From: Candidatus Daviesbacteria bacterium GW2011_GWA1_41_61
GTDB taxonomy: Bacteria; Patescibacteriota; Microgenomatia; Daviesbacterales; UBA10151
Direction of reading: 5' to 3'
Assembly (NCBI GenBank): GCA_000997385.1
Contig: LCBT01000002.1
Span: 6,315-70,314 of the forward strand
Length of the DNA stretch: 64,000 bases
A model generated the notes under the pieces. It did no database searches. It was not told the origin of the DNA and saw only the letters and a list, made by a program, of their open reading frames with translations. Both the position numbers and the translations under genes were made by a program. Positions 3,963 through 9,413 of the stretch are shown here, piece after piece (position 1 is the first letter of the stretch; each line of letters opens with the position of its first letter).

Positions 3963-4820
3963 TTATTGATAAAGGACGTAAGGAAAAATTTTAATGACAG
4001 CTCTGTCCAAAACTCTTAAAAGTGTGGGTGTCTCCCTTACTGAGTGTGCCCACTCCCGCAACTCATATCTATCCACAAAACCATTTTCCCGTAAAGTAGC
4101 AGGCAATTCATCAATCATGCTGTTAGTCCACTCCCTAATCTGCGCAGGTAAACTTCCCAGTTCCTTTTGGGTTGCTTGATAACTATAAAGCATACTGAGA
4201 AGTTGGTACTTCGTATCTGCTGCTTGTAAAGGAAGCTTGTCTTTATTCATAGAAAAAACACTAACTCTACCCTTGTTAAGTCTCACCCCATCCCAAAGTG
4301 CCTCAAAACCCACTCCCCTTCTTTTAACCACCCCCTTGATTGTGTCAAATTTGCGTAGCTTAACATTAAAAGAACCAATATCTACTAATGTAATTGCTGA
4401 AAATTCAGGAGATCTTGGCGCAGTAATAAGAACTTCCAGAGTCGTATTTGCCTCTTGCAAACCAATCCCTGAAGTTTGTGTCCTTCCCCAATCAGCTCTA
4501 CTAATCTGAGTTAGATAGGGAAATGGGTCGGAACAGAGACGCAATCCTCTGCCTGATCCACCCAACTCACTATCGCCAAAGGAAATCTTTCCCTCTTTCC
4601 AAACCTCATCACGAATCACCTCTAAGGCTTCATCTACTTGGAGTTCTTTTAAAATTTCCTGGGTTCTGGTAACGTCTTTTTTTGTTTTTGACTCTTTTGA
4701 CTCTTTTGTCGATTGGCGGGCCTGAATTTTTGCTTTTAATTTGACCCGTTGCTCAGCTAAAGCTAAAGCTTGAGCTTGACGATAATTATTTGCCGTCCTC
4801 TCTAAATCTTCTAATCTCAT
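3963..4820 (-). CDS. hypothetical 285-aa protein carried by the insertion; candidate novel recombinase/homing factor (function unknown)
   Basis: Charged, coiled-coil-like N-terminus. No RHRY (Tyr-recombinase), Ser-recombinase, DDE, HUH, DEDD, HNH, GIY-YIG or LAGLIDADG signature recognizable by eye. Confidence 0.45.
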   Translation of the reverse strand: MRLEDLERTANNYRQAQALALAEQRVKLKAKIQARQSTKESKESKTKKDVTRTQEILKELQVDEALEVIRDEVWKEGKISFGDSELGGSGRGLRLCSDPFPYLTQISRADWGRTQTSGIGLQEANTTLEVLITAPRSPEFSAITLVDIGSFNVKLRKFDTIKGVVKRRGVGFEALWDGVRLNKGRVSVFSMNKDKLPLQAADTKYQLLSMLYSYQATQKELGSLPAQIREWTNSMIDELPATLRENGFVDRYELREWAHSVRETPTLLRVLDRAVIKIFPYVLYQ

Positions 4821-7168: not shown

Positions 7169-8353
7169 ATGATCAAAATCTCTTTTCTCCGTTTTAAAAC
7201 CAGGCCGGTTAAAGTTAAAAATTTAGTGATTGGTGGTGATAATCCAGTAGTGGTACAAACTATGTGTACTGAGTATACCGAGAACGTACCAGCTGTGGTA
7301 GAACAAATTATTGCCCTTCATCAAGCCGGAGCAGAACTTATCAGAATCACCGTCCCCTCTTTAAAAGATGCCGAACATGTGGCAGAGATTAAAAAACTTC
7401 TCAAGAAAAAATACCAGGATGTGCCTTTGGTAGCTGATGTTCATCATTTTGGTTCGGATATTGCCATTAAAACTGCTGAGGTAATGGATAAAATCCGTAT
7501 TAACCCCGGCCTTTTTGTCTTTAAAAAACCATCCGGAAAATTGGAATACTCTAAAACCGAGATTGAGGCAGAATTAGCCGAGATCGAAAAAGCTTTGCTG
7601 CCGGTTTTGGCAACCTGTAAAAAACATGGTACAGCTATGAGGATAGGAGTAAACCATGGCAGTTTATCCGAGAGATTAAAGATAATGTATGGAGACACTC
7701 CCCAAGGCATGGTGGAATCAGCTATGGAATATCTAAAAATTTGTCAAAGGAACCACTTTCAAGAGCTGGTTATCTCTTTAAAGGCGAGCAAAGTAAAAGT
7801 AATGATTGAGGCCAATAGGTTAATGGTCCAAAGGATGGTAGAAGAAGGCATGAACTATCCCCTACACTTGGGAGTTACCGAGGCAGGAGCAGGGCAAATG
7901 GGACGGGTAAAAGGAGTGGTAGGCATTGGTACTCTCCTAGCAGAAGGTATCGGTGATACTATCCGAGTCTCCCTTTCAGAGGACCCTATAAATGAGCTTA
8001 GTGTTTGTTATGATCTACTCCAATCTTTAGGACTAAGAAGAACTAAACTGGAACTTATTGGCTGTCCTACCTGTGGCAGAACCCGTTTTGACCTGCCACC
8101 TATGTTAGCTAAAGTAGAGACAGAGTTTGGACATTTAAGTAATCTTTCTATTGCCGTCATGGGTTGTATTGTTAACGGTCCGGGTGAAATGGCTGATGCA
8201 GATTACGGGATGATGGGCCAGGAAGAAAAAACAGTAACTATCTTTCGGGGCCAAACTTTAATTAAACCTAATGTTCCCCAAGACCAAGCTTTAACAGTTT
8301 TAAAAGAGCTTATTCAAGCTGATGGAAAATGGATCGAAACAAATAAGGAGTAA
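7169..8353 (+). CDS. ispG: 4-hydroxy-3-methylbut-2-en-1-yl diphosphate synthase (IspG/GcpE)
   Basis: VKVKNLVIGGDNPVVVQTM N-terminus and GCPTCGRT [4Fe-4S] motif; length ~394 aa. Confidence 0.8.
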   Translation: MIKISFLRFKTRPVKVKNLVIGGDNPVVVQTMCTEYTENVPAVVEQIIALHQAGAELIRITVPSLKDAEHVAEIKKLLKKKYQDVPLVADVHHFGSDIAIKTAEVMDKIRINPGLFVFKKPSGKLEYSKTEIEAELAEIEKALLPVLATCKKHGTAMRIGVNHGSLSERLKIMYGDTPQGMVESAMEYLKICQRNHFQELVISLKASKVKVMIEANRLMVQRMVEEGMNYPLHLGVTEAGAGQMGRVKGVVGIGTLLAEGIGDTIRVSLSEDPINELSVCYDLLQSLGLRRTKLELIGCPTCGRTRFDLPPMLAKVETEFGHLSNLSIAVMGCIVNGPGEMADADYGMMGQEEKTVTIFRGQTLIKPNVPQDQALTVLKELIQADGKWIETNKE

Positions 8354-9413
8354 GTCTTTGACGGGTGGCACGAAGGAGAGATCTCGGGCGTCGACCGCAT
8401 CCCGACGTACGTCGGGAGAGGACGCACCTGAGATACCGAAGCGGCAGGATCCGTCAAAGGTAGTATGGCCTCAAAAATTACTTTTAGCCTCACCTCGGGG
8501 TTTTTGTGCTGGAGTAAGACGGGCTATCGATGCCTTAAACCGGCTGGTAGAAGCTCACCCCAGGCAAACCATTTATTGTTTTCACCAGATTGTCCATAAC
8601 ACTTATGTAGTCTCTGAATTTGAAAGCAAAGGTGTAAAGTTTGTAAACTCTTTAGAAGAGGTGCCAGAAAATAGCATTATAGTCTTTAGTTCACATGGAG
8701 TTTCTCCTCAAGTAAGACAGCAAGCTGAGAAGAAAAAGCTAAAAACTATTGATGCTACCTGTCCTTTTGTTACTAAAACTCACCTGGAGGTTAAAAAATA
8801 TGCTTCAGAGGGAGATAAGATCATCTATATTGGGCAATCCCATCATGATGAAGCAGTAGGTGCCACCGGAGAAGCTCCAGAAAGCACAGTGATTGTCCAA
8901 ACTCCAGAAGAGATAGAGGCTTTAGAAATTTCTCCTAGTCAAAAAGTAGCCTTAGTAACCCAAACAACACTATCCTTTGATGAAACAGAAGGCTTAAGAC
9001 AAGCTCTAAAGTCTAAATATCCCCATTTAATTGAGCCATCCCACTCAGATATCTGTATGGCTACCCAAAACAGGCAAAATGGGGTCAAAGAGTTGGTTCA
9101 ATCCGGGGCAAAGGTAGTCATAGTTTTAGGCTCAGCCAACAGCTCTAATTCTAATAAGTTAAAAAAAGTAGCTGAAAAAATGGGAGTAAAGGCTGTTTTA
9201 ATTGACGAAATTTCTGAGTTGGATTTAAGTTTAATAGAAAGTGTAGAGTGTGTTGGTTTAACAGCCGGGGCCTCTTTACCGGAAAATAAAATCACTAAAG
9301 CTTTAGAATGGTTTAAAGATCATGGTACTAAGACTATTGAAGAGATACTGGTAGCAGACGAATCTTCTATCTCACTGCCCACGGTAGATACTCATCAACC
9401 ATCTAAAGCCTAA
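8322..9413 (+). CDS. ispH: 4-hydroxy-3-methylbut-2-enyl diphosphate reductase (IspH/LytB); true start uncertain (ATG 8322 overlapping ispG, or TTG 8358)
   Basis: LLLASPRGFCAGVRRAID, HNTYVV and conserved Cys residues match IspH/LytB. The N-terminal ~45 aa is the Arg/Ser-rich translation of the GC-rich element. Confidence 0.75.
   Translation: MENGSKQIRSKSLTGGTKERSRASTASRRTSGEDAPEIPKRQDPSKVVWPQKLLLASPRGFCAGVRRAIDALNRLVEAHPRQTIYCFHQIVHNTYVVSEFESKGVKFVNSLEEVPENSIIVFSSHGVSPQVRQQAEKKKLKTIDATCPFVTKTHLEVKKYASEGDKIIYIGQSHHDEAVGATGEAPESTVIVQTPEEIEALEISPSQKVALVTQTTLSFDETEGLRQALKSKYPHLIEPSHSDICMATQNRQNGVKELVQSGAKVVIVLGSANSSNSNKLKKVAEKMGVKAVLIDEISELDLSLIESVECVGLTAGASLPENKITKALEWFKDHGTKTIEEILVADESSISLPTVDTHQPSKA
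8356..8459 (+). other. GC-rich (~63% GC) nested-hairpin element at the ispG/ispH junction; candidate structured RNA / cis-regulatory element
   Basis: Outer inverted repeat CTTTGACGG...CCGTCAAAG. Inner GCGTC...GACGC. A perfect 16-nt palindrome CCCGACGTACGTCGGG. A GAGATCTC palindrome. GC content is far above the ~38% background. Confidence 0.3.

Follow-up and report, generated by a model that had tools for sequence, protein, structure and literature searches.

In yeast mitochondria, the GC clusters and the 'byp' elements are GC-rich palindromic mobile inserts in AT-rich genomes, and they occur in coding sequence as well; ribosomes skip over byps, for which there is no requirement to preserve the frame. 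The Rickettsia palindromic elements (RPEs) were reportedly described by Ogata and colleagues in 2000. A review (PMC10969869) documents their fusion, in frame, with many genes. How does a GC-rich hairpin at the junction of ispG and ispH, in a bacterium of quite another kind, compare with these? The hairpin lies in a 64-kb stretch of DNA (the window, in all that follows) from Candidatus Daviesbacteria bacterium GW2011_GWA1_41_61, contig LCBT01000002.1. We conclude, with a probability of about 0.7, that it is a dispersed palindromic repeat resembling the transposable elements of the miniature inverted-repeat type (MITEs) and the RPEs, and that it lies in frame within ispH, where it is tolerated as a disordered peptide. 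The argument refers to the following features of the junction.

7169 to 8353, plus strand: ispG (GcpE), 394 aa, from the list of open reading frames (ORFs) and the Pfam family GcpE found on an identical gene.
8322 to 9413, plus strand: the ispH (LytB) ORF, 363 aa from the ATG at 8322, from the ORF list.
8347 to 8465, plus strand: the inserted segment, 119 nt against a single T in relatives, from the DNA alignment with loci L010 and L011.
8355 to 8366, plus strand: 5' strand of the closing stem P1, pairing with 8449–8460, from the minimum free energy (MFE) structure and the inverted repeat.
8356 to 8459, plus strand: the hairpin element, from folds and a covariance model; the family core TTGACGGGTGGC...CAGGATCCGTCAA is 8358–8457.
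8358 to 8360, plus strand: an in-frame TTG inside P1, an alternative start from which one gene caller derives a 351-aa product (P0001).
8400 to 8417, no strand assigned: the apical perfect 18-nt palindrome TCCCGACGTACGTCGGGA, which is the variable P4 of the family.
8449 to 8460, plus strand: 3' strand of P1, directly after the conserved unpaired CAGG at 8445–8448.
8465 to 8467, plus strand: an out-of-frame ATG that opens a 44-aa ORF and is not the ispH start.
8475 to 8507, plus strand: start of the IspH core, KLLLASPRGFC, from alignment to solved IspH, invariant columns and the AlphaFold2 (AF2) model.

What do relatives carry at this position? We compared the window's IspH with its 51 closest listed homologues (P0002–P0052, 58–82% identity, the window's own product excluded), the best named matches being metagenome-assembled genomes (MAGs) of Daviesbacteria and Microgenomates. 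Only one of the 51, P0036, has an extension; the rest have 7–22 residues before PRGFC. The N-terminus of the window protein reads MENGSK[QIRSKSLTGG...QDPSKVV]WPQK, the bracketed part being the insert. P0002 (82% identity) begins MENGLKTNNWPSK and P0004 (74% identity) begins MESGFKTNNWPQK, and both bracket the insert exactly. All three proteins have the MENG.K start that overlaps ispG. In the DNA of relatives with an empty site (L010, L011) the sequence runs ...CAAATAA-T-TGGCC..., and in the window 119 nt replace that T. Taken together with an upstream A-run that is 1 nt shorter, this gives a net change of +117 nt, or 39 codons (about residues 9–48). The first-pass annotation had offered a GC-rich miniature insertion as one of several possibilities, and the empty sites in close relatives, along with the dispersed multicopy family described below, bear this out. 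The alignment of orthologous junctions that it proposed finds the element absent from the nearest relatives; covariation of the hairpin is seen across the family.

The ispH ORF starts within the 3' end of ispG, overlapping it by 32 nt. The ATG at 8322 is also the start in relatives that lack the element, so the element sits inside the ispH reading frame. The ispG C-terminus has changed as well, from ...WIENK* in relatives to ...DGKWIETNKE* in the window (8340–8353 in the window against 3018–3026 in L010, where the IspG tails are ...ETNKE* and ...ENK*). Both overlapping frames were re-set at once because the A-run is 1 nt shorter and the stop codon comes from the inserted segment. Downstream of the insert the protein is a full-length IspH/LytB core (PF02401) with its Fe–S cysteines. 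It matches the solved E. coli IspH with an E value of 7e-71, the homology extending over residues 52–325; Cys62 is the counterpart of the first Fe–S cysteine of the E. coli protein, and the invariant alignment columns include P58, R59, G60, F61 and C62, as well as C147 and C245.

The inserted DNA stands out from its surroundings. The element is 62–63% GC in a window of 40.0% GC; 100-nt windows reach 62%, and the best 80-nt value of the whole window (0.65) falls upon it. The remaining GC-rich islands are tRNAs or fold no better than dinucleotide shuffles. A perfect 9-nt inverted repeat, CTTTGACGG/CCGTCAAAG (8356–8364 and 8451–8459), forms the outer stem, and the P1 pairs are invariant across the family. 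As plus-strand RNA, 8350–8470 forms a single long imperfect hairpin with an MFE of −51.5 kcal/mol (z −4.05), and none of 200 dinucleotide shuffles is equally stable; the minus strand reaches −47.3 kcal/mol (z −3.86). The GC-rich hairpin proposed at first pass thus stands, and the fold it recommended yields a stable hairpin on either strand. The 16-mer palindrome quoted there is unique in the window and finds no match in 100 shuffles. Searches of the 64 kb with a 13-mer (3 mismatches), with the 16-mer and with the covariance model gave no second copy. As an aside, two independent Logan unitigs (L007 and L008) both stop at ...CGTCGGGAGA (about window position 8419), just past the 18-nt palindrome, which seems to break de Bruijn assemblies at that point.

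Do other genomes carry the element? P0036 (59% identity, locus L009) has a 95-nt element near the same ispG/ispH junction, with the same ends TTTGACGGGTGGC...CCGTCAAA, a different interior and a hairpin of −52 kcal/mol (z −5.65). The contig on which it lies (CAZDEH010000001.1, L009 and L019) bears the public title 'uncultured Gammaproteobacteria bacterium'; the label is probably wrong, the contig having 36% GC, Microgenomates-like IspG and IspH and the gene order of the window. An exact-pattern scan of one genome per species returned 11 matches. Eight of these are chance-like, with no GC contrast, no long hairpin and no covariance-model score; one is L009 again; and two (L016 and L021), both intergenic and both in a single low-GC MAG, JBDRCK01, are clear relatives. 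A tighter pattern returned 29 matches on 28 metagenome contigs, mostly from groundwater and of 31–37% GC, with three (L024, L028, L034) of 54–70% GC. Altogether the family comprises about 24 distinct sequences of 81–105 nt with common ends TTGACGGGTGGC...CAGGAYCCGTCAA. One contig (L046) holds two copies, and identical 103–104-nt copies stand in different flanks within one metagenome. The family is therefore a multicopy, dispersed repeat. Most copies fall between genes, convergent pairs included, and face either way with respect to their neighbours. A scan of viral contigs and BLAST searches of phages and plasmids gave no real matches. Literature searches, with sequence strings and with terms for CPR (candidate phyla radiation), MITEs and palindromes, found no description of the family. 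We conclude that a family of ~100-nt palindromic repeats in groundwater CPR bacteria and a few other genomes has apparently gone undescribed.

Some copies have further DNA of interest about them. Many low-GC copies (L025 at about 4290–4440 on the minus strand, L035, L037, L045, L046 and others) lie inside a larger composite repeat, in the order AAATAGCTCGATACC, a structured 'unit A' of ~70 nt, GGTATCTTCGCTATTT, the hairpin element and GGTATCGAGCTATTT. Unit A consists of GGGAGCC, a hairpin and TCCCAAAGCG, with covariation from GGGA/TCCC to GAGA/TCTC; the outer 15-mers of the composite are perfect inverted repeats, and the composite has no Rfam match. Two genomes have the element immediately upstream of a tRNA and a 23S rRNA gene (L025, 4785–8328; L016, 2379–5454), in opposite orientations; the 23S gene of L025 contains a group I intron (7710–7999) and large insertions. 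In L028 (13035–13056, minus strand) the 3' end GACAGGACCCGTCA recurs 4 nt beyond a full copy, downstream of it, as a partial tandem duplication. In L050, at about 230–250, a solo inverted 3'-end fragment, TTGACGGATCCTGTCAAG, some 150 nt upstream of a full copy, appears to be what is left of a second copy that has decayed.

Is it the hairpin that is conserved, or just its ends? Across 16 canonical members 97.4% of the cells are paired, and 13 of the 31 pairs have changed on both sides. The covariation score of these members is 0.288, as against 0.136 in column shuffles (0 of 500 reach 0.288) and at most 0.085 when the partners are slid. A covariance model built from the 16, with the window excluded, finds the window element at full length (8358–8457, plus strand; 35.8 bits, E 2.8e-6) and gives no score to the chance pattern matches among L012–L022. 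In an alignment of 14 diverse members including the window, which was fitted to the model and so is biased towards structure by construction, pairing extends to 93.4% of the cells, and compensatory changes are seen in 22 of 31 pairs. The core of the family consists of P1 (UUGACGGGU/ACCCGUCAA), two asymmetric unpaired loops (GG opposite ACAGG, and GAAGG) and the junction in which GCGCGCAG stands opposite CGAGCAC. These loop motifs are common to the CPR copies and to a genome of 58% GC (L028).

If most copies lie between genes, what of those that do not? Five copies are in ORFs: the two in IspH, and three others as follows.

L043: TrxB (thioredoxin reductase), an internal loop insert of 33 codons; solved thioredoxin reductases (TrxRs) align on either side.
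L039: TsaD, an internal insert.
L049: Tdk (thymidine kinase), a C-terminal tail.

The same TrxB (L043, 3088–4239, minus strand) has, at residues 281–338, a second and AT-rich insertion of ~57 aa that occurs in no solved TrxR. All five in-ORF copies have the plus orientation and are read in frame 0, in which TTG ACG GGT GG becomes LTGG, so that the element has repeatedly occupied unrelated, essential protein genes in one fixed frame. Frames +1 and −1 start with TGA in every element. Of 24 elements, 16 have an open frame +0 and 18 an open frame −0; hence openness alone does not account for five out of five in +0. Both canonical internal copies have a length of exactly 99 nt, while intergenic copies range from 98 to 105 nt. 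Such a filter on length and frame is the signature expected if the elements are translated and only in-frame, stop-free, hydrophilic copies survive.

These observations bear on whether the element reaches the protein at all. It might be removed or skipped, by intron-like excision from the RNA or by a ribosomal bypass as in T4 gene 60 and the mitochondrial byps, to leave a mature IspH that lacks it. A very stable GC-rich hairpin inserted into AT-rich coding sequence does resemble the mitochondrial GC clusters and byps. But frame +0 is open through both IspH copies and those in TrxB and TsaD, and the Tdk copy is read in +0 as a C-terminal tail. Such a filter on frame and length would be expected only under translation, the excision of 8356–8459 (104 nt) would break the frame, and the element matches no ribozyme or intron family. 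We consider removal or bypass very unlikely.

The first-pass annotation read the segment as an N-terminal extension of IspH, and the arrangement of the frame lends that reading support: the frame is open, no start lies downstream of the element, and MENGSK and WPQK on either side have in-frame counterparts in relatives. The AF2 model of the window IspH, made from an alignment of 30 IspH sequences, has a mean pLDDT (predicted local distance difference test) of 87.7, with values below 50 for residues 1–29 and 31–34 and above 90 from residue 51. The insert peptide, hydrophilic and rich in Arg, Ser, Thr and Gly, is thus predicted to be disordered. Might it nevertheless be a functional extension peculiar to the lineage, the hairpin being incidental? 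In favour, the ORF has no interruption, and gene calls on 20 contigs give exactly the same 363-aa product. On the other hand the peptide is not conserved, the extension of P0036 having just LTGG and PSK in common with that of the window; it is predicted to be disordered; and the same DNA element occurs between genes and in unrelated proteins. A functional extension is, in our judgement, highly improbable.

Could the open frame be an artefact of assembly? A frameshift in the assembly had been raised at first pass. The start would then be the ATG at 8465, the A5 run would really be A4, and the element would be intergenic; removal of one A from 8472–8476 does give MASKLLLASPRG. However, the DNA of the junction is identical base for base in L001–L008, that is, in at least six assemblies from different samples, runs and assemblers (ENA megahit k127 and k141, JGI, a scaffold set and Logan). 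Relatives read WPQKLLLASPRG in the frame in which the window does, and there too W-P-Q-K, upstream of the A5 run, lies in frame 0. The ATG at 8465 is merely the final base of the insert, an A, joined to an ancestral TGG codon. It had been given as lying at 8464 in the wrong frame; the frame is as described, and the true site is 8465–8467. The identical assemblies and the frame of WPQK refute the frameshift, the likelihood of which we put close to nil.

Which codon, then, starts ispH? In its frame, 5' of the core, the candidates are the ATG at 8322 and the TTG at 8358 and no others, just as the first-pass annotation stated. An AAGGAG at 8345–8350 lies 7 nt upstream of the TTG. Among the 42 window ORFs of at least 200 aa, 8 have a tetramer resembling a Shine–Dalgarno (SD) sequence within 22 nt of the start, and initiation in this genome seems to proceed largely without SD pairing. 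Since such motifs are found in just 8 of 42 ORFs, the case that AAGGAG makes for the TTG is weak. The TTG, buried in P1, is the less likely start. The ATG at 8322 is most likely the start of translation, as judged from its AU-rich, unstructured site, which is common to relatives and coupled to ispG.

We now ask whether the element might act as an RNA. The plus strand folds better in 14 of 24 members (p 0.065), and all the diverse members favour it; G–U pairs outnumber A–C mismatches by 12 to 4, which again leans to the plus strand. Neither strand test is significant, and one is biased by the model-fitted alignment. At gathering score neither the window nor any of 13 related loci matched a family of Rfam 15; at E ≤ 10 there was no match over 8250–8560 and nothing above noise for a canonical copy. 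The small embedded ncRNA suggested at first pass thus finds no support as a known ncRNA. Among other candidates considered, none of small signal recognition particle (SRP) RNA, Y RNA, RNase P CR-V, attC, K-turn or retron was supported. At the element no promoter was found and no terminator-like site on either strand, the 3' flank being GGUAGUAUGG; an intrinsic terminator or attenuator was rejected, there being no GC hairpin followed by a U-tract.

It is nevertheless conceivable that the family is a functional structured plus-strand RNA, acting in protein binding, processing, stability or as a small RNA, and that the copy between ispG and ispH tunes ispH, as a cis-regulatory or translational-coupling device of the sort listed at first pass. 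The translation of ispH might, for example, be coupled to that of ispG by ribosomes that end at the ispG stop (8351–8353) and melt P1, or the long helix might be cut by RNase III. The base of P1 lies 2 nt after that stop, with AAGGAG-N7-TTG at the stem. The strong compensatory changes would suit such a function, as would the asymmetric loops conserved between CPR copies and L028, the lean of the strand tests, the sense orientation of all five in-ORF copies and the occurrence of two copies at the same junction. Yet the element is absent from all but one of the 51 IspH relatives, its intergenic copies face either way, even between convergent genes, and spread as many identical copies is usual for repeats. 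The strand tests fall short of significance, Rfam and the search for a terminator are negative, and SD use is rare in the window genome. We regard a functional RNA as unlikely. On the reading we favour, the hairpin belongs to the elements as a family and did not evolve to serve ispG–ispH.

How would a mobile repeat come to lie in IspH? We envisage that a non-coding GC-rich palindromic repeat of about 85–105 nt inserted at the ispG/ispH junction of this groundwater bacterium of the Microgenomates (CPR), such a gene junction being presumably one of the few permissive sites in a compact genome. With the start of ispH inside the 3' end of ispG, the repeat would land in the first codons of ispH. 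The copy in the window survives because its net change is 39 codons and contains no stop. Ribosomes starting at the ATG at 8322, or less probably at the TTG at 8358, would read through the element and so place a disordered insert of 39 residues before the first β-strand and the Fe–S cysteine of an IspH that would otherwise be normal. The insert would be neutral or nearly so, and the peptide presumably harmless; the distribution of the family suggests that the element is, or was, mobile.

Several points tell against the account of a dispersed, translated repeat. There is no consistent target-site duplication in the flanks of ~28 copies; those of the window copy, GGAGTAAGTC and GGTAGTA, have only AGTA in common, and that is offset from the ends. 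No transposase ORF adjoins any copy inspected, nor was an autonomous partner found around these copies. The window holds one copy in 64 kb, so that multicopy status belongs to the family and not to this genome. Translation of the element is deduced from its frame. The conservation of the ends is partly imposed by the exact search patterns that were used. Two of the ~24 distinct copies are at the same ispG/ispH junction, which could reflect a site preference or a function. Finally, ends and internal loops are conserved between hosts of 31% and of 58–70% GC; a decaying MITE usually shows less, and the conservation would fit a functional RNA.

A bolder proposal takes that last point further. The family would cross phyla, from CPR genomes of ~30% GC to genomes of 58–70% GC, would proliferate within genomes, colonising essential genes in one fixed frame, and would either work as an RNA or be recognised by some mobilising enzyme in the form of a folded single strand. 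On this proposal the orientation bias and the conserved loops would argue against a decaying transposon relic. We hold it to be possible, though doubtful.

If the element is a dispersed palindromic repeat, as we favour, there are consequences for the annotation of the locus. It would show ispH as an intact gene with a translated repeat for its long Arg/Ser-rich N-terminus, and neither a frameshift nor a signal peptide nor a riboswitch. In-frame palindromic repeats in housekeeping genes have so far been mostly a curiosity of Rickettsia; they now appear in the ultra-small genomes of the CPR, which suggests that they generally arise when repeats spread through genomes that have next to no intergenic DNA. 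The GC-richness, the conserved loops and the presence in hosts of very different GC content make the family a candidate for a new mobile structured element of RNA or DNA. The covariance model is now at hand for a census of the family.

To which of the known systems does the family come closest? The kind of element, a palindromic repeat in frame, is already known, and it is this family that appears to be undescribed. The REP sequences and BIMEs (repetitive extragenic palindromes and bacterial interspersed mosaic elements), with their RAYT transposases, are likewise extragenic palindromes abundant between genes. However, REPs are 20–40 nt long with a conserved GTAG, whereas the present element is ~100 nt long and lacks a conserved GTAG, and its surroundings showed no RAYT gene. 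With the mitochondrial byps it has in common that it is a GC-rich palindromic insert that lands in coding sequence. It differs in that every in-ORF copy is in frame and free of stops, which points to translation by read-through.

The resemblance to the bacterial MITEs (Correia/NEMIS, ERIC, BOX and RUP) is closer. These too are small, non-coding and multicopy, form strong RNA hairpins, and are mostly intergenic but sometimes fused to ORFs, and the present elements have the terminal inverted repeats of a MITE (TTGACGGGT/ACCCGTCAA, with 9–12 bp of perfect ends). The absence of a consistent target-site duplication sets the family apart. Around the copies inspected no parent insertion sequence with matching ends was found. 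The whole element is one covarying helix, whereas in MITEs terminal inverted repeats surround an unstructured core.

In its behaviour the family is most like the RPEs, of which we class it as an analogue rather than as a member; no relationship in sequence is expected. Its hosts are not Rickettsia but CPR/Microgenomates and some high-GC bacteria; it is far more GC-rich than its AT-rich hosts, and its ends and internal loops are conserved over hosts of 30–70% GC. Both families, on the other hand, are dispersed palindromic repeats of ~100–150 bp in reduced genomes, found between genes and in frame in unrelated housekeeping genes. Neither has a transposase of its own, and both are read as a hydrophilic peptide, in a fixed frame, at sites where the protein tolerates it.

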